IMG/VR virus record: IMGVR_UViG_2778261571_000004
Direction: 5' to 3' (one strand)
Source of the DNA: a virus
Lineage: Duplodnaviria > Heunggongvirae > Uroviricota > Caudoviricetes
Length of the DNA: 64,000 nucleotides
Part shown: piece by piece, positions 43,719 through 61,797 of the stretch
How the letters are laid out: each line of letters opens with the position of its first letter
Numbering within the stretch: the stretch's first letter is position 1
The notes under the pieces: model-generated
Seen by the model: only the letters and a program-made list of their open reading frames with translations
Told to the model about the DNA's origin: nothing
Databases searched by the model: none
Program-made: the position numbers and the translations under genes

Positions 43719-43758
43719 ATAATTGCGATAAAAAAGGCGTCCTGTGGACGCCTTGTGT

Positions 43759-46098
43759 TTACTCTTCTACTGACTCGGTGGGGGTATCTTTTGCTCTCCG
43801 GTCATCGATTGCCTGCAAAGCCGCAATGATTTCAGCCAGTGGCTTCTCCCGATACATCTCGACGATCTGCGATTTGGTGTATTTCTTGTCACCAATTTCA
43901 ACTCGCCCGCTGGCGTTCTTTGGCAGGTATCCTTCTTCCAGCATGTACTCGACGAGCGATTCGATAACGTCGAGGCCACGAGTAGGATCGAAGTAGAATT
44001 TCCAGGTGCATTTGCCATACGGTGGTGCAACTTTGTTTTTGATGCATTCTGCGCCTACGTCCTGGCCGATCTTCTCTTTACCATCCTTCATCACCGATGC
44101 ACCAAGACGGATACGTACAGAAGCGTAGAACTTCGGTGAATCTCCACCTGGCGACGTAGTAGGGTCGCCAAACATTACACCGATTTTTGTGCGAACCTGA
44201 TTCAAGAAGATGATGCAGGCGTTGTATTTGCGTGCCCACAAAGCCAGAGTAGGGAAGTTCGCACTCGTCGCACGAGCCAGTGCCGTATTGTCGTTCATGT
44301 TTAGCTGATCTTTGTCTTTGGCTGTGCCTTCAGCCATCTTTTCGAACTTCTCGGCTTTGGAGTTCGGAACCATAGACGCAAGAGAGTCAGCCACGATACA
44401 GATAGGTGCTGATTCGGGGATAAGCTCTTCATCACGAACCAATTTAAGTATTGTGCCGATCAACTCTACAGAGTCTTCGAAGGTATCTGGCTGCTTGTAT
44501 ACCCACTGACCGTCATCCTCATCTGCGTTCAGGCCATTGGCTACAGCCAGGCCAACGTCAAAACTGTTTTCATGATCGAGGAATACCGCCAGACCATCTT
44601 GTTTTTGAGCGGAGATCATCGCTGCTGTTGCAAGGAATGTGTTGTGGCTGATAATCCCGTTAGACCAGAAAGAGTGTGTTTCCGGCATCGCTACGTCGAA
44701 CGTTGGTGCTTCACCTTCCTCAATAGCCACGACTTCGTCGTAGAACAAGTTAGAGCCAATTACCGCTGCCAGTTGTGCAAACAGATGCTCGTTAAAACGA
44801 TTCTTTCTGCCAATGAAGGAGACATAGATTTCTCGCAGTTTGTCTATTCCGACACGATCGCCGCGGCCAATAACGTGGTCTACCAGAGCGTAGTCTTCAC
44901 GGGTGGTCTTGGTGAGCGACTCGTAGAGTGATTTCACTAAGCCGCTGATGTGCGGAACATAGCCTGAGTAAGTGCGGTCAAAACCAATGTCCCGTTTGGT
45001 TGCCACTGATAAACGTGCCGGAGATTCGAAACCAATCGTTGACAGAAAAAGGTCGTAATTAGAGCCACTGAATGACAGCCGGTAATATGTATTTTCATAA
45101 CCCGCGACGTGTTTTTCAGAGATAGTTGACGTAATCCCCAGATTCAGGAGCATGAGGCGAATTTGCTGTAGCAGCAGCCCACTCGCGCTCACAACCTCAA
45201 TGCAGCGACCATCATTGACGTGGCATTCCAGCTCAAAGTAGCCGCGAAGGAATGCAATTTGAGCCTCGCTATTGGCGCGACGCACACTCAACGGAACCTG
45301 CTTGCCAGCAGCTTTCTCATACTCCAGACCATATTCTTTAAAAAGCAGCGAACGCACCTCTTTGCTAAACAGCACATGGTCTTCCGAGCCGTTATGTTTT
45401 CTCGTAACTGGCATCTTGTCTGATACCAGCGAAATGAGGCGGTAGTACTCATCCTTGATGAAAGGATCTGTGTTAGAAAAATTCACTGAATTTTCAGAGG
45501 CCACGTATCCGTCAGCAATTAAATAGCCCATCAGTTTTGCGATATTGGCATCCAGGTGCTGATCGCCGAATTGATGTGTGCCAACCATTGAAGGAATCGT
45601 GTCGCCTACACTGATTTTTTCAGCATGTCGCCAGACGACATTACCTAAGTCGTCAACCACACGGATTGGGTGACGGAACGTAGCCTCGATATAACCGCCT
45701 GATGCCAGCTTAATACGCTTGAATTTGCGACGGTTGTTCCATGTCAGGTGTGAGGTCTTCTCTATCACGCCATTTTCATTGATGAGTCCAACGTTATGCT
45801 CTACATCGCGAGTAGTGCATGTCGCTTTGTACCCTTCAATCTCAAACAACTCTTTCACTGTTACCATTCCACGCTCCGTCAGCAGCATGGTGTCTGCGGT
45901 AACACATTTCCCCGCGCTTGGTGGCCCGAATACTTCTACGATACGACCACATGGGAAACCGCCATCGTAACGACCGGAAATAGCTTTGTTTAACGGAGGA
46001 AAGCCTGTGTCAATCCAATGAGTTACTTTCTGAATTTCGTCGTTGCTACCGATTTTCTTTTTCAGAGCAAGTGCCAGTGCGGATTTTCCTTTTGCCAT
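43759..46098 (-). CDS. RecA-family recombinase interrupted by an in-frame intein
   Basis: N-extein ...GRIVEVFGPPSAGK (Walker A) then Cys; C-extein resumes TFLATAAM...; exteins total 357 aa, RecA-sized. Confidence 0.8.
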   Translation of the reverse strand: MAKGKSALALALKKKIGSNDEIQKVTHWIDTGFPPLNKAISGRYDGGFPCGRIVEVFGPPSAGKCVTADTMLLTERGMVTVKELFEIEGYKATCTTRDVEHNVGLINENGVIEKTSHLTWNNRRKFKRIKLASGGYIEATFRHPIRVVDDLGNVVWRHAEKISVGDTIPSMVGTHQFGDQHLDANIAKLMGYLIADGYVASENSVNFSNTDPFIKDEYYRLISLVSDKMPVTRKHNGSEDHVLFSKEVRSLLFKEYGLEYEKAAGKQVPLSVRRANSEAQIAFLRGYFELECHVNDGRCIEVVSASGLLLQQIRLMLLNLGITSTISEKHVAGYENTYYRLSFSGSNYDLFLSTIGFESPARLSVATKRDIGFDRTYSGYVPHISGLVKSLYESLTKTTREDYALVDHVIGRGDRVGIDKLREIYVSFIGRKNRFNEHLFAQLAAVIGSNLFYDEVVAIEEGEAPTFDVAMPETHSFWSNGIISHNTFLATAAMISAQKQDGLAVFLDHENSFDVGLAVANGLNADEDDGQWVYKQPDTFEDSVELIGTILKLVRDEELIPESAPICIVADSLASMVPNSKAEKFEKMAEGTAKDKDQLNMNDNTALARATSANFPTLALWARKYNACIIFLNQVRTKIGVMFGDPTTSPGGDSPKFYASVRIRLGASVMKDGKEKIGQDVGAECIKNKVAPPYGKCTWKFYFDPTRGLDVIESLVEYMLEEGYLPKNASGRVEIGDKKYTKSQIVEMYREKPLAEIIAALQAIDDRRAKDTPTESVEE
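44641..45906 (-). mobile_element. intein (about 422 aa) with LAGLIDADG homing-endonuclease domain inside the recA-like P-loop
   Basis: Starts CVTADTMLL, ends ...ISHN followed by Thr+1; LMGYLIADGYV and FLRGYFELECHV LAGLIDADG-type motifs; coordinates from residue counting. Confidence 0.7.
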
Positions 46099-46100
46099 GA

Positions 46101-46367
46101 TCAGGCTCCTTTTGTTTCGTTGATTCGTTTTAAAGCGGCGGATTCGTCGAATACAATCGCATCGTGATTAAGGAGTCTGGATACACGAGCGAGGATTTTT
46201 ACGACCTGCTCGCTGACTAATCCAAACTCGCGATCTGTCGCTTTCATTCCGGCAGCGCCTAGAATTGACGGCAGTGCGATGACAGCGTACTCACCGTGAT
46301 AAAAGACAATCTCTTTTGCCAGTTGGGTGGGGGTGGTTGTAGCGCCATTAATAATCGATTTAAGCAT
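46101..46367 (-). CDS. small hypothetical protein (start at Met3 of track ORF)
   Basis: TAATG coupling with upstream FEN gene. Confidence 0.4.
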   Translation of the reverse strand: MLKSIINGATTTPTQLAKEIVFYHGEYAVIALPSILGAAGMKATDREFGLVSEQVVKILARVSRLLNHDAIVFDESAALKRINETKGA

Positions 46368-47311
46368 TAGCAATACCTTTCGAATGGAAGAACAAACACT
46401 TCAAGGTCTTCAAGGAACGAACGGAAATTCAGCTCGTAGCACAGTTGCTCGAATGCTTTCACGTCACGATTGCCTTTGATTGTTTCGATTTCGGTAGGCG
46501 GAAACTTCGTCTCAATCAGGTTCATTAGCGTGATGTTTCTCTTGAACGCTTCGAGCATTCGACAGCCTGTTTTCTCGTTGAAGGCATTCTTCGCTAGTTT
46601 GTTGAAGGCGGTCTTATGGCGTCCTTTGTCAACCACGATTGAGCCGTCGTTGATGCCGCGTACCATCGTTGCGACACTTCCCCATTCATGCAGCAGCTCT
46701 TTCGCACCGCCAGCACCAATGCCACCAACACCGCTAATGTTGTCCGATTTATCGCCTTGTAATGCTTTTGCTTCCAAAAATGCGCGAGGAGTAGCGAATC
46801 CTGTCAGCTCCGCAAATTGCTCAAAATTAACCTGCTTGTTTTTGGCGTCTTCACGCAGGCTGACCCAGCTTACGTTTTCACGAACTAACTGAAGCCAGTC
46901 GCTATCGCCTGTTAACAGATAGATGTGTTCAACGGTTGGCTGCGGTGCCATGCGGGATACCAGCAGCCCGGCCAGATCATCCGCTTCTGCATCTTTTGCA
47001 ATGAGTTGGGTAACTCCAAGCGCGGTCATCATTTTGAGGATGTATGGCTTCTGGATAGCAAAGCCTTCCTTCATCTTTTTCATATCAGGATCGTCGTCGC
47101 GATTTGCTTTGTAGTCCGGGTAAAAGTCGCGACGCTTGTCACTAAATCCATCCCAAAGAATCATAGGTCGGGCATGGAGGATGGAGGCATAACGACGGAC
47201 GTTCTTAACAAAGCCGAAAGCAGCCTGTACTTCCATTTCGCCGTTGTGCAATTTGTCAGATTGTTGGTGGTAATAACCCAGGCTATTGCCATCTACGAAG
47301 AGATAATTCAC
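46367..47311 (-). CDS. 5'-3' exonuclease / flap endonuclease (T4 RNase H / Pol I 5'-exo family)
   Basis: YLFVDGNSLGYY, LTGDSD, GDKSDNI, GVGGIG motifs; GTG start with GGAAGGA SD assumed after an upstream terminator. Confidence 0.7.
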   Translation of the reverse strand: MNYLFVDGNSLGYYHQQSDKLHNGEMEVQAAFGFVKNVRRYASILHARPMILWDGFSDKRRDFYPDYKANRDDDPDMKKMKEGFAIQKPYILKMMTALGVTQLIAKDAEADDLAGLLVSRMAPQPTVEHIYLLTGDSDWLQLVRENVSWVSLREDAKNKQVNFEQFAELTGFATPRAFLEAKALQGDKSDNISGVGGIGAGGAKELLHEWGSVATMVRGINDGSIVVDKGRHKTAFNKLAKNAFNEKTGCRMLEAFKRNITLMNLIETKFPPTEIETIKGNRDVKAFEQLCYELNFRSFLEDLEVFVLPFERYC

Positions 47312-47371
47312 CGGTACATTCCTTCCAAAAAGTAAGGCGTCCGTAGACGCCTTACTGGTCACGTAATGGGA

Positions 47372-48400
47372 TTACAGAGAGTCCAGCTCTCTCAGTAGGT
47401 CATCCAGACCTTCATCTTCCGTCGCAGATGCGGTTGCTACAGATGTCGCTGCGACTGCTTCAGACTCTTTGACTGATACGGCAACGGCAGCGGAACTTGC
47501 CTCTGGTTTAAATTCAGTTTCAACGGCACGGAGGATTTCTTCATCAACCAGACTGGTTGGTTCAGAAGCCGGTGTGTGCGCGGTTGCTACAGCCGTCGCT
47601 CCTTCTGTATGACCAGTGACAGAGCCAAATCCAGGTAGTGCCGCAGCCGATGTTTTCGCGGTTGAGGAAATTGCTGGTGCAGATGCTGCGGCAGTTGGTG
47701 CAGCGATGCCAATCAGACGACCCATAGTGCGAACTGTCGACAGAAGACGAGTTTCATCAGCCTGATTTGCGTATGCGATCAGATCATGCTGGGTGTTCCA
47801 GAATTTATCTTCGATATCGCCTTTGTAGACTTTACGCTTAGGCGAGACGTCATATTTGGTATCGCGACCAGAGCCAGTACGTTTAATCAGGAATGCGTAG
47901 CCTTCCTCTTTGCTCAGTGGATTGCCGATATCATCAGCGATGTCTTCGGTGATTGCTTTGCAGATATCATCGAATACAGTAGACGGCAGCTCGATTAACT
48001 GGCATTTCTCAGCATCTGCGAAATCCTCACGAGCAGAAAGAATGCCGTTGACCAGGTAGCGAGGAGTGGCACGCATTTGACCGATGCGTTCTTCCATTGC
48101 TTTGTTACCCTTGTGACGAGCGCGACCTTCCATAACCATTTCGCATAGCTGACAAGCGCGACCGTGAGTATGTTGCTCACAAATATAAGCGTTGGTTGCT
48201 TCTTTACCTTCCTCGTTCTGATACTTAACGTAGTGCATACCGAAAGTCTGGAAGAACTTACCGTTTGGGTCGTCCTTATTCGGGAAGATACGGATATAGT
48301 TGACGCCATCTTTTAAGCGAGTCAGATCAACGTTGTTACCACGTTTGGCGGCAATGTCTTCACGAGTTTTGTTAAGCAAATCAAGTAATGTCTTAGACAT
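47372..48400 (-). CDS. single-stranded DNA-binding protein, T4 gp32-like (tentative)
   Basis: Zn-site-like C..H..C..C (ICEQHTHGRACQLCE), Ala/Ser-rich linker, acidic C-terminal tail EDEGLDDLLRELDSL. Confidence 0.55.
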   Translation of the reverse strand: MSKTLLDLLNKTREDIAAKRGNNVDLTRLKDGVNYIRIFPNKDDPNGKFFQTFGMHYVKYQNEEGKEATNAYICEQHTHGRACQLCEMVMEGRARHKGNKAMEERIGQMRATPRYLVNGILSAREDFADAEKCQLIELPSTVFDDICKAITEDIADDIGNPLSKEEGYAFLIKRTGSGRDTKYDVSPKRKVYKGDIEDKFWNTQHDLIAYANQADETRLLSTVRTMGRLIGIAAPTAAASAPAISSTAKTSAAALPGFGSVTGHTEGATAVATAHTPASEPTSLVDEEILRAVETEFKPEASSAAVAVSVKESEAVAATSVATASATEDEGLDDLLRELDSL

Positions 48401-48517
48401 GTGTTTCTCCTTATTGTGATTTGGCCGATGGCGCTATGCGCGTTGGGCTTTCGTTCATTCGTGGCTCTTTCGAGCTGTTAAATGATAGATCAGTACTTAC
48501 TTATTATCTATCAAAAA

Positions 48518-48949
48518 TCAACGGGGAGTAATAAAGCGTTCAGAGCCTAATCGCTCTAATTCAACGATAGCCATCTTCGACGCCTGAACGATCATGTCTC
48601 GGCGATGCGAAAAGGCGGCGACAGCATGTTTGTATATGTCTGCGATGTGCCGTGCTTCATCCAACTTCTGCCGTTTAGACAGATACTGTGGGTTTGTTTT
48701 AACCTTAGCGTCCAGTACAGACTCATTGAACTTAATGCCGTTCATACTCAAGTTCTTACGCTCTGTGTCGTATAGCTTTGCTTCAACAGCTTCAAGGTTA
48801 AGTTTTGCTTCTGCGACATCTCGATCTGCCTGCGCTAGTTTTGACCCATACTCCATTAAAAGCCGTGGCTGTTTACGCCATACTTCCTCAAGGTTGTCGC
48901 GGTCGAACTCCAGATCGGCCATGATTTTAGAAAAAATATCAGTGTTCAC
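48518..48949 (-). CDS. hypothetical protein, possibly UvsY-like recombination mediator (weak)
   Basis: Size and helical character only. Confidence 0.3.
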   Translation of the reverse strand: MNTDIFSKIMADLEFDRDNLEEVWRKQPRLLMEYGSKLAQADRDVAEAKLNLEAVEAKLYDTERKNLSMNGIKFNESVLDAKVKTNPQYLSKRQKLDEARHIADIYKHAVAAFSHRRDMIVQASKMAIVELERLGSERFITPR

Positions 48950-60950: not shown

Positions 60951-61100
60951 TGCGCTGAAAAAAAGTGTTGCTAGGATGTTAGCAAGCTATGGTTAAGAAC
61001 GTCTGCCGTAATTGTCTATCACAGCGTTGAGCGGTCTGGTTTATGTTAGCGGAGTCTTAATCTGGGTGATTAAAAGGCCAAACCGCTCAACGCTGTGTCT

Positions 61101-61186
61101 GGCGGAGAGTAATGGAATCGAACCATCATCGCTTGCGCAATGGGACGGTTTTCAAGACCGCTTGAGCACCATGCTCCCTACTCTCC
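61101..61186 (-). tRNA. tRNA-Ser (anticodon UGA), type II with long variable arm, approximate
   Basis: GGTTCGATTCC T-loop, CUUGAAA anticodon loop, 7-bp acceptor pairing, encoded CCA; hand-folded. Confidence 0.55.
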
Positions 61187-61550
61187 GGCCGTTGTGGTGG
61201 CCGGTACTGAATCTCCGGCATACGGTGCAGCCAATTAGGACTACGGACGATCACCGCTCGCGAAAGGGAAGATTTGCGGCCGCATTTCCCTAACATCCAA
61301 GAAAGCTATCGCATCAGTCTGCGAATCCACCACAACGGTAAGATCACTACCTTTCGACCAGTCATTGTGCACATGAACGACGATTAACCGTAATGATCTT
61401 ATCGTTGTGTTGTGAAGCCAGATGCTTATCTTCTGGTTGCTTCAAAGAGCTGCACTTCCTCACAACGGTAAGAGCACTGGTCTGACTCTATCGATTTACG
61501 GGCTTGTGGGTCAGTATCGCCGATTCGCCCAATGCTCTTACCTGTTGTGT

Positions 61551-61626
61551 TGGTGCCGGTTAACGGGATCGAACCGCTGACATCCTGCTTACAAGGCAGA
61601 CGCTCTACCAACTGAGCTAAACCGGC
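61551..61626 (-). tRNA. tRNA-Thr (anticodon UGU), approximate
   Basis: GCCGGTT acceptor, D-arm GCTCAGTTGGTAGAGC, anticodon loop CUUGUAA, GGTTCGATCC, CCA. Confidence 0.65.
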
Positions 61627-61630
61627 AATT

Positions 61631-61717
61631 TGGTGGGGAGTGATGGAGTCGAACCACCCGAGTCGCAATGACAGTAGATTTACAGTCTACCCCGCTGCCC
61701 CTACGGACTAACTCCCC
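61631..61717 (-). tRNA. tRNA-Tyr (anticodon GUA), type II, approximate
   Basis: Anticodon loop CUGUAAA, long variable arm, GGTTCGACTCC, CCA. Confidence 0.6.
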
Positions 61718-61722
61718 TAAAT

Positions 61723-61797
61723 TGGCGATGGTGGGTGGATTCGAACCACCGACCAGTTGGTTAACAGCCAACTGCTCTACCGCTGAGCTACACCATC
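61723..61797 (-). tRNA. tRNA-Asn (anticodon GUU), approximate
   Basis: GATGGTG acceptor, GCTCAGCGGTAGAGC D-arm, anticodon loop CUGUUAA, GGTTCGAATCC, CCA; sequence differs from E. coli tRNA-Asn as I recall it. Confidence 0.7.

Follow-up and report, generated by a model that had tools for sequence, protein, structure and literature searches.

The window, as we call the whole 64,000-nucleotide stretch of DNA analysed here, carries at positions 43,759–46,098 a recA-like gene whose ATP-binding P-loop is interrupted by a long in-frame insert. This raised the questions of what kind of recombinase gene is interrupted, what the insert is, and whether it is likely to splice out of the protein and to move between alleles.

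A phage-type recombinase gene interrupted in its Walker A motif

According to the ORF list, the minus strand of 43,759–46,098 is a single open frame without interruption that encodes a complete precursor of 779 aa plus stop (86.5 kDa), and the plus-strand translation of the same interval contains many stops. The ORF is thus real, and its strand, which the first-pass annotation did not give, is minus. PHROG 9666 matched the precursor from end to end (1868 bits), and Pfam placed RecA, LAGLIDADG_3 and Intein_splicing matches on it. The computed anatomy comprised an N-extein of aa 1–64 (45,907–46,098, minus strand) whose last residues are the Walker A motif GPPSAGK (aa 58–64; 45,907–45,927), an insert of aa 65–486 (44,641–45,906; 1266 bp, 47.5 kDa), and a C-extein of 293 aa (43,762–44,640), which is spanned by the Pfam RecA and PDB RecA alignments. 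The insert begins with Cys65, directly after Walker A, and ends in SHN (His485-Asn486); the next residue, Thr487 (ACA), is Thr+1 and would complete GPPSAGK-T after splicing. The insert is therefore exactly 422 aa long, and the exteins add up to a RecA-sized protein of 64 + 293 = 357 aa (39.0 kDa). The first-pass annotation had proposed this same arrangement, down to the extein sum and the terminal His-Asn before Thr+1, and its observation on this locus was confirmed in every detail.

The assignment of the host protein to the RecA family was borne out by profile and structure-database searches. Pfam RecA matched the precursor at 3e-36, above the curated cut-off, and the spliced extein at 2.2e-42 (145.8 bits; cut-off 27); PDB RecA chains matched the recombinase at E about 1e-26, and PHROG 97 ('UvsX-like recombinase') matched at 1e-83. 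The protein has the ATPase core of the RecA/RadA/UvsX superfamily, with Walker A and Walker B. We considered whether the gene is a cellular recA and rejected this, since the extein scored 153.7 bits against the bacterial RecA equivalog TIGR02012, under its cut-off of 325.3, and none of the copies in 5426 complete E. coli genomes was chromosomal: all 252 lay on SSU5-type phage-plasmids. The Pfam scan of the spliced extein gave no match to the RecA C-terminal domain (PF21096). The host gene is a phage-type RecA-family recombinase and not the recA of the host cell.

The window itself is an SSU5-like E. coli phage-plasmid with 99% identity to phage Cyrano/pLF82. Upstream of the recombinase gene and on the same strand, a PHROG scan and the Cyrano annotation identified four recombination-module genes (46,101–48,949): a 90-aa ORF that abuts the recA start (46,101–46,373), a 5'-3' exonuclease (46,367–47,362), a gp32-like SSB (47,372–48,400) and a 143-aa protein that is UvsY-like according to the Cyrano annotation (48,518–48,949). 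This gene order is also kept in the distant relative L013, where the recombinase gene is called as split; we rejected a different architecture as the explanation, because the split is due to one in-frame TGA at the conserved block G Trp. Cyrano, which carries the intein, produces virions (PMC9928086), and the paper describing it makes no mention of an intein. The GenBank record of another intein-plus phage, PhiR41_1, gives E. coli K-12 MG1655 as host.

Splicing and endonuclease domains of the insert

The insert was identified as an intein by block matches and by fold. PF14890 (Intein_splicing) matched the precursor at 2e-11 (44.3 bits; cut-off 35.8), TIGR01445 (intein_Nterm) at 35.5 bits (cut-off 24.5) and TIGR01443 (intein_Cterm) at 17.8 bits (cut-off 15.6). 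The N-terminal splicing region (about intein residues 1–110; 45,577–45,906) contains block A, C1-V-T-A-D-T (45,889–45,906), and block B, T76-F-R-H79 (45,670–45,681), and the C-terminal splicing region (residues 386–422; 44,641–44,751) contains block F, P-T-F-D404-V...E-T-H-S-F, and block G, S-N-G-I-I-S-H421-N422. In an alignment with relatives, the block B TxxH, the block F D404 and the block G HN all line up. An AlphaFold2 (AF2) model of the intein (pTM 0.83, pLDDT 79.8), built from an input of only 10 sequences and of low confidence at the block G residues, gave Foldseek matches to mini-inteins and to the hedgehog Hint domain, besides those to endonuclease-containing inteins described below. 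The insert is thus a canonical class-1-type intein with a HINT fold and blocks A, B, F and G, placed exactly between the Walker A Lys and Thr. An unrelated in-frame domain was rejected because Pfam and NCBIfam models matched the intein blocks and the fold search pointed to inteins, and chance is no serious alternative, because the Pfam matches exceed curated cut-offs and an intein-less allele differs by an exact 1266-bp insertion.

The splicing residues that had been pointed out at the two junctions, Cys1, His421-Asn422 and Thr+1, are present in the window copy and in the six further copies examined, and the reading frame is open in 7/7. From the sequence we infer that the 86.5-kDa precursor is spliced into a 39-kDa ligated recombinase and a 47.5-kDa intein. 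The precursor would be incapable of normal ATP binding because its P-loop is split; the HINT domain, using Cys1, Thr76/His79, Asp404, His421-Asn422 and Thr+1, would excise itself and join the exteins, yielding a 39-kDa GPPSAGKT recombinase equivalent to the product of the intein-less allele, together with the free 47.5-kDa intein.

If splicing were inefficient, the gene would be an effectively dead recombinase, with host RecA or other functions compensating. Copies disrupted by insertion sequences speak for this reading: IS1 lies inside the intein in one decayed copy and IS911 in the C-extein of another, in E. albertii, so at least some plasmids can do without the recombinase. Topilina et al. 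(PMC4513877) also describe steric clashes when the E. coli RecA precursor is modelled, which points the same way. Yet no other part of the intein is as constrained as the splicing region, where dN/dS is 0.02–0.07 compared with 0.12–0.20 in the endonuclease region (estimates based on small counts, 13–57 synonymous changes); such constraint is to be expected only where release of the recombinase is required. The catalytic residues, moreover, are intact in all copies examined, and the allele is found in functional phages and in 46% of the carrier E. coli genomes. We regard a dead recombinase as very improbable.

The endonuclease in the insert was confirmed to be of the LAGLIDADG type. LAGLIDADG_3 (PF14528) matched precursor aa 279–356 at 2e-17 (63.4 bits; cut-off 22.5), and the two motifs noted previously were located at intein residues 125–133 (motif 1, block C, L-M-G-Y-L-I-A-D132-G; 45,508–45,534) and 220–228 (motif 2, block E, L-R-G-Y-F-E-L-E227-C; 45,223–45,249). 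In the AF2 model, Asp132 lies at the C-terminal end of a predicted helix (120–131) and Glu227 at the end of another (213–227), so that each of the two helices closes on an acidic residue within the alpha-beta-beta-alpha-beta-beta-alpha fold of LAGLIDADG endonucleases. The best Foldseek matches were the TliVMA intein, PI-PfuI, PI-PkoII and PI-SceI, and the I-DmoI fold was matched too. Motif 2 ends in Glu-Cys and not in Asp-Gly, a form that is conserved among the relatives of the intein. The distant relatives P0007, P0012 and P0013 have no motif 1 in the alignment, and endonuclease decay therefore occurs in this intein family.

Intein-less alleles and probable transfer between lineages

Empty alleles define the insertion to the nucleotide. 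Phage CMS-2020a has an intein-less allele that lacks exactly 1266 bp relative to the window gene and otherwise shows 22 differences, 21 of them synonymous; the 357-aa product of this allele is the predicted spliced product except for T350N. The N- and C-exteins are contiguous there and in p503440_100, and GPPSAGK-TFLATAAM is read through unbroken in CMS-2020a, p503440_100, SSU5 and pJN2-26. At the empty site, p503440_100 reads GCG GGG AAA ACG, CMS-2020a GCA GGG AAA ACG and pJN2-26 GCT GGT AAA ACC. One near-isogenic plasmid (14 kb, 99.3%) is intein-less. The polymorphism is common: the intein is present in 114/250 carrier E. coli genomes (46% plus, 54% minus) and in about 240/736 PLSDB plasmids.

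Three matched plus/minus pairs differed near the junction at positions -7, -4 and +3 only, where all intein-plus alleles have the synonymous bases G, G and A, respectively. The exact intein-type flank was found in 0/115 empty sites of complete E. coli genomes (best 98.8%); a precisely excised allele, that is, an empty site retaining this flank, was thus not among them. CMS-2020a also differs from the window gene by a cluster of synonymous changes in the last 31 nt before the junction. We rejected both a long co-conversion tract and target-site immunity as its origin, because the N-extein of the near-isogenic intein-less allele p503440_100 agrees with that of the window at each of these sites. 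The cluster belongs to the haplotype background, and -7, -4 and +3 are the sole positions linked to the intein. These three positions are central to the presumed homing site, which consists of two half-sites of 40 nt on either side of the intein (44,601–45,946, minus strand).

Divergence between genera differed sharply between the intein and its surroundings. The intein of the window element is 96.8–97.0% identical to those of Klebsiella, Enterobacter and Citrobacter elements, compared with 80–86% for the exteins and 72–83% for neighbouring genes; dS between genera is about 0.09 for the intein and 1.0–1.8 for the exteins. The intein is sporadically distributed, its divergence is at odds with that of the host gene, and the bases linked to it in the flanks point to co-conversion. 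The low intein dS relative to the exteins, together with the recurring flank changes at -7, -4 and +3, indicates that the intein has probably homed recently between lineages.

Homing of the endonuclease into intein-less alleles thus has strong comparative support. When two phage-plasmids occupy one cell, the endonuclease of the free intein (Asp132, Glu227) would cut the intein-less recA at GGG AAA | AC(N) TTC, and repair off the intein-plus copy would transfer the intein with a few flanking bases. Alternatively, the intein may splice with an inactive endonuclease and be inherited vertically or carried by general phage-plasmid recombination. The atypical motif 2 (E-L-E-C), the loss of motif 1 in P0007, P0012 and P0013, and mosaic haplotypes within the intein, where ordinary recombination evidently acts, would fit this explanation. 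It is nevertheless unlikely: intein dS is at least 10-fold below extein dS across genera, the endonuclease region is under purifying selection (dN/dS 0.12–0.20, as above), both catalytic acidic residues are retained, and in each of three separate lineages the transferred segment ends no more than about 7 nt from either junction, a pattern that general recombination would not repeat. We favour, with high confidence, a self-splicing, homing intein in the Walker A motif of the RecA-type recombinase of an SSU5-like phage-plasmid.

With near-isogenic alleles that have or lack the intein, co-conversion tracts that span 3–7 nt and a more than 10-fold dS gap, the locus illustrates recent homing in nature with unusual clarity, and its carriers are organisms that allow direct homing tests. 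It is conceivable, as a tentative reading, that the so-called 'first E. coli intein' belongs to SSU5-type phage-plasmids as an element still mobile today, homes among Escherichia, Klebsiella, Enterobacter and Citrobacter lineages in shared cells and may also switch recombinase splicing. If so, it would offer a naturally occurring E. coli system, amenable to genetics, for the study of intein homing and regulation, and a built-in marker for phage-plasmid co-infection.

Comparison with previously described inteins

Neither the intein nor its site and boundaries are new: the element has stood in a published catalogue since 2015, and it is frequent among plasmids of enterobacteria. Table 1 of Topilina et al. 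2015 (NAR 43:6631, PMC4513877) gives the RecA insertion point c2 (65–486), with E. coli, Enterobacter and Salmonella as carriers, including E. coli MS 145-7, whose plasmid copy is 99.8% identical to the window gene. The c2 intein and the window intein are the same element, with identical boundaries and P-loop site. The host context differs: the accessible text of that paper refers to bacterial E. coli RecA without a plasmid or phage, whereas the gene studied here belongs to an SSU5-type phage-plasmid, so the name under which it was published, 'E. coli RecA intein', conceals a non-chromosomal, phage-plasmid host gene. In the same text, the E. coli RecA intein is catalogued and modelled only. 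Literature searches (intein in SSU5, phage-plasmids or pHCM2; E. coli or Enterobacter RecA intein, 2015 onwards) returned no phage-plasmid placement and no splicing or cleavage assay. Relative to the accessible text of Topilina et al., the plasmid-only location and prevalence, the dS contrast and the intein-linked flanks appear to be additions. RefSeq uses five names for the gene, sometimes 'intein-containing recombinase RecA' and often 'LAGLIDADG family homing endonuclease'; under the latter name, the recombinase goes unrecognised in hundreds of annotated plasmids.

The closest parallel in position is the Pyrococcus horikoshii (Pho) RadA intein (c1), which shares the insertion point between the Walker A Lys and Thr as well as Thr+1 (PMC4513877), and whose splicing domain has a related fold (4e2t, E 8e-5, Foldseek). 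In contrast to the window intein, it is an archaeal, hyperthermophilic mini-intein without an endonuclease and with little sequence similarity, and it represents an independent invasion in the judgement of the authors (PMC4513877). Its conditional splicing was shown experimentally. By analogy, the window intein may have been co-opted as a conditional switch on the phage recombinase that responds to redox, temperature or single-stranded DNA. The insertion point shared with the regulated Pho RadA intein (PMC4513877) is in keeping with such a role, the allele is very common, and a disulfide trap is conceivable given Cys1, three more intein cysteines and Cys50 of the N-extein. A selfish element without benefit, however, fits the plus/minus polymorphism in near-isogenic plasmids and the homing signature, and we consider co-option quite unlikely.

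The RecA inteins of Mycobacterium tuberculosis (PI-MtuI, site a) and M. leprae (site b) are likewise LAGLIDADG endonuclease inteins in RecA, and RecA activity in these species depends on splicing (PMC4513877, PMC5050341). Unlike the window intein, they are inserted at residues 252 and about 206–211, at the monomer-monomer interface, in a chromosomal host gene (PMC4513877, PMC5050341); their sequences are unrelated to that of the window intein, with only a weak splicing-domain match (2in0, E 2e-3). In architecture, the window intein resembles endonuclease-containing inteins of known structure, TliVMA (7qss), PI-PfuI (1dq3), PI-PkoII (2cw7) and PI-SceI (1vde), which all combine HINT and LAGLIDADG domains with an extra helical domain (Foldseek E 2.5e-19 to 3.5e-15, TM 0.60–0.68, identity 15–22%), but their host proteins and sites differ. 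The P-loop is the commonest intein niche (PMC4760082, PMC5050341), and the P-loop inteins DnaB-b, MCM-a, RFC-a and mycobacteriophage TerL1-a occupy it in other host families and as separate lineages.

The interrupted recombinase gene and its intein

A single ORF fills the interval 43759-46098 without interruption; it has 779 codons and lies on the minus strand, and translation of the plus strand gave many stops throughout. The coordinates in the first-pass annotation were correct; the strand, which it had left out, is minus. The computed anatomy consists of an N-extein (45907-46098), an intein (44641-45906) and a C-extein (43762-44640), all on the minus strand. By calculation, the precursor weighs 86.5 kDa, the joined exteins 39.0 kDa and the intein 47.5 kDa. 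The split of the Walker A motif proposed in that annotation was reproduced: G-P-P-S-A-G-K occupies residues 58-64 of the precursor, and the insertion starts at Cys65, ends in S-H-N at residue 486, is exactly 422 residues long and is directly followed by Thr487. The exteins sum to 357 residues (64 + 293), the size it had assigned to them.

Pfam searches of the precursor detected RecA in two stretches (3e-36), LAGLIDADG_3 (2e-17) and Intein_splicing (2e-11, residues 73-486), all scoring above the curated cut-offs, and the NCBIfam models of the N-terminal and C-terminal intein splicing regions were both matched. The joined extein alone matched Pfam RecA (2e-42) and solved RecA structures (~1e-26), which bears out its placement in the RecA family. 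A cellular recA identity was rejected, since the bacterial RecA equivalog model gave the extein 153.7 bits, below the 325.3 cut-off, and the best PHROG functional family was 'UvsX-like recombinase'; within the RecA superfamily the protein is of phage type.

The canonical intein blocks A, B, C, E, F and G were all present (intein numbering): block A, C1-V-T-A-D-T; block B, T76-x-x-H79; block F, P-T-F-D404-V...T-H-S-F; and block G, S-N-G-I-I-S-H421-N422. The two LAGLIDADG-type motifs that had been reported correspond to block C (motif 1, LMGYLIAD132G) and block E (motif 2, LRGYFELE227C). An AlphaFold2 model of the intein built from ten sequences (pLDDT 79.8, pTM 0.83) best matched the TliVMA intein (7qss; E 2.5e-19, TM 0.68). 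The other top matches, PI-PfuI, PI-PkoII and PI-SceI, were likewise full-length endonuclease inteins, and mini-inteins, the Pyrococcus RadA intein among them, ranked lower. Predicted helices 120-131 and 213-227 of the model each have one of the motifs at their C-terminal end, the expected place of the catalytic acidic residues. The splicing models and the fold match agree with the earlier reading of the insert, which is almost certainly a true intein; both the observation and its interpretation were right.

Phage CMS-2020a matched the window gene at 98% in two pieces. Nucleotides 1-192 of the gene strand directly adjoin 1459-2340 there, and the 1266 bp that separate the Lys64 codon from the Thr65 codon in the window gene are missing. 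Its 357-aa product is the predicted spliced product with T350N as the sole change; of 22 nucleotide differences, 21 are silent. Plasmid p503440_100, 99.3% identical to the window across 14 kb, is also intein-less. An intein-less allele that occurs in nature pins down both ends of the intein.

Signature of recent homing

The window was compared with Klebsiella, Enterobacter and Citrobacter plasmids. Nucleotide identity was 96.8-97.0% in the intein (dS 0.09), 80-86% in the N-extein (dS at least ~1.0, one comparison being saturated), 82-84% in the C-extein (dS 1.3-1.8) and 72-83% in neighboring genes (dS saturated). Judged by these divergences, the intein is much younger than the recombinase gene hosting it.

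Conversion tracts were delimited by comparing three intein-plus alleles, each with an intein-less allele from its own lineage. The window and p503440_100 differed only at +3 within 488 nt; PhiR41_1 and CMS-2020a differed only at -7 and +3 from -52 to the end of the first 1000 nt compared; and Klebsiella CP035909 and pJN2-26 differed at -7, -4 and +3, with the next difference not before +84. All intein-plus alleles shared the flank GCG GGG AAA (intein) ACA, and none of the 115 empty E. coli sites had this exact flank, indicating that both transfer boundaries fell repeatedly within a few bases of the junctions. Such boundaries would be predicted by double-strand-break repair after endonuclease cleavage; general recombination does not predict them.

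The empty sites were retrieved from E. coli genomes with an 80-nt query rebuilt from window positions 44601-44640 and 45907-45946. About 100 of the 115 empty alleles were 90-95% identical to it; sampled rows of this band mostly had the CMS-2020a-type flank, with six synonymous differences per 80 nt, and few of the 115 had the window-type flank. The CMS-2020a-type flank may be common among empty sites as a poorer endonuclease target or through mere population structure. PhiR41_1 illustrates a haplotype with this flank that is open to intein invasion.

The N-terminal splicing region had a dN/dS ratio of 0.02-0.07 and the endonuclease region one of 0.12-0.20; the frame was open in all seven intein copies examined. 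Constraint on the splicing region would make sense only if the recombinase must be released. The intein was a mosaic of two haplotypes in nested tracts anchored near its 5' end: Cyrano had the second haplotype at intein nt 57-84, PhiR41_1 at nt 57-444, and the Klebsiella, Enterobacter and Citrobacter copies throughout. Intein-plus alleles therefore recombine among themselves as well. The window variant at nt 57-84 was otherwise seen only in E. albertii.

Two copies were disrupted. In E. coli plasmid CP059946.1, whose record leaves the recombinase gene unannotated, a ~770-bp IS1-like element lies within the N-terminal region of the intein with a ~8-nt duplication matching window ~45476-45483; this copy is inactivated by a second mobile element. 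In Escherichia albertii plasmid NZ_CP034165.1, an IS911-family element breaks the C-extein; its intein, the most diverged copy seen (94.0%), has an open frame and a dN/dS of 0.09.

The standard intein account is the most likely one for this gene. The precursor would be inactive because the intein splits the P-loop, and self-excision would restore GPPSAGKT. The freed intein would then cleave empty recA alleles on co-resident phage-plasmids and be copied in during repair. On the sequence evidence, the intein very probably splices, and its endonuclease is probably active at present or was very recently.

Phage-plasmid setting and distribution

The window gene matched 'RecA' of Escherichia phage Cyrano at 99.0% identity and a gene of phage PhiR41_1 at 98.4%; the recombinase of Salmonella phage SSU5, which has no intein, is a further relative. 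Cyrano, identical with pLF82, is a phage-plasmid and makes siphovirus particles (PMC9928086). The closest plasmid across 14 kb was NZ_CP126951.1 from avian pathogenic E. coli (99.5%). The gene is the last of a minus-strand recombination module that also contains a protein called UvsY-like in the Cyrano annotation, a gp32-like single-strand DNA-binding protein, a 5'-3' exonuclease and a 90-aa ORF. Just downstream of recA (stop at 43759), before the next gene, the window lacks a ~1.1-kb segment coding for an SPFH/stomatin-like protein and a small membrane protein, which is present in Cyrano, PhiR41_1, SSU5 and p503440_100. The two BLAST pieces at the breakpoint (43727-43753) overlap by ~27 nt, suggesting a repeat-mediated deletion, and the closest plasmids, NZ_CP126951.1 and NZ_CP010144.1, have the same arrangement. 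Four minus-strand tRNA genes (Ser-TGA, Thr-TGT, Tyr-GTA and Asn-GTT) cluster at 61100-61797.

The recombinase gene was carried by 250 of 5426 complete E. coli genomes, 114 of which had the full-length intein form, and all 252 copies were on plasmids, with none on a chromosome. In PLSDB, 736 plasmids matched the gene, ~240 with the intein: Escherichia (123), Klebsiella (71), Enterobacter (41), Citrobacter (6) and Salmonella (1), with no Yersinia among the intein matches listed.

Relation to known inteins

An intein-only search returned just a handful of more distant relatives (27-45% identity). Those with extein kept on both sides were inserted between the Walker A Lys and Thr-Thr, and the hosts were RecA proteins with one exception. 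They included a canonical recA on a 550-kb contig, a phage-like contig, and L013 (metagenome contig ERZ27257820 k141_7541), whose intein occupies the same site and is 44% identical. L013 has a distant SSU5-like module (PolIII-alpha, gp32, exonuclease, RecA and DNA ligase), in which the order from PolIII-alpha to RecA is that of the window. At L013 9380-9470, the conserved block G Trp gives way to an in-frame TGA (HSF*SNGFISHN, then T), splitting the gene call in two; either a nonsense mutation or an error in sequencing may account for it. LAGLIDADG motif 1 was lost in several relatives, consistent with the familiar life cycle in which an intein first invades and its endonuclease later decays. 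The exception, P0014, is a 542-aa metagenomic RuvB Holliday-junction helicase with a mini-intein at the equivalent Walker A point (GPPGLGK, then C...NHN, then TT), and its splicing blocks are similar to those of the window intein (E 2e-4).

RefSeq names the Enterobacter and Citrobacter copies 'intein-containing recombinase RecA' and most E. coli copies 'LAGLIDADG family homing endonuclease' or 'hint domain-containing protein'. At least five names occur among the RefSeq/GenBank matches, 'recombinase RecA' and 'hypothetical protein' also among them, so the recombinase identity is hidden in most E. coli records. The protein is PHROGs family 9666. A survey of RadA/RecA inteins named the site insertion point c2 and listed 'c2 (65-486)' in eight E. 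coli, two Enterobacter and one Salmonella strain (Topilina et al. 2015, Nucleic Acids Res 43:6631, PMC4513877, Table 1). The plasmid copy of one listed strain, E. coli MS 145-7, is 99.8% identical to the window gene. Given this publication and the RefSeq and PHROGs entries, the finding is correct but not new, the intein having been known since 2015. The survey passages that were searched gave no plasmid or phage context for c2, and our literature search found no paper linking an intein to SSU5-type elements. The residual value lies in a clean comparative signature of recent homing between genera, in a phage-plasmid, not the chromosome, as host of 'the first E. coli intein', and in exposing the inconsistent RefSeq naming. 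A regulatory role such as the Pyrococcus RadA intein has is a bare possibility, which none of the present results supports. In its residue numbers, 65-486, the window intein is identical to the published c2 intein.
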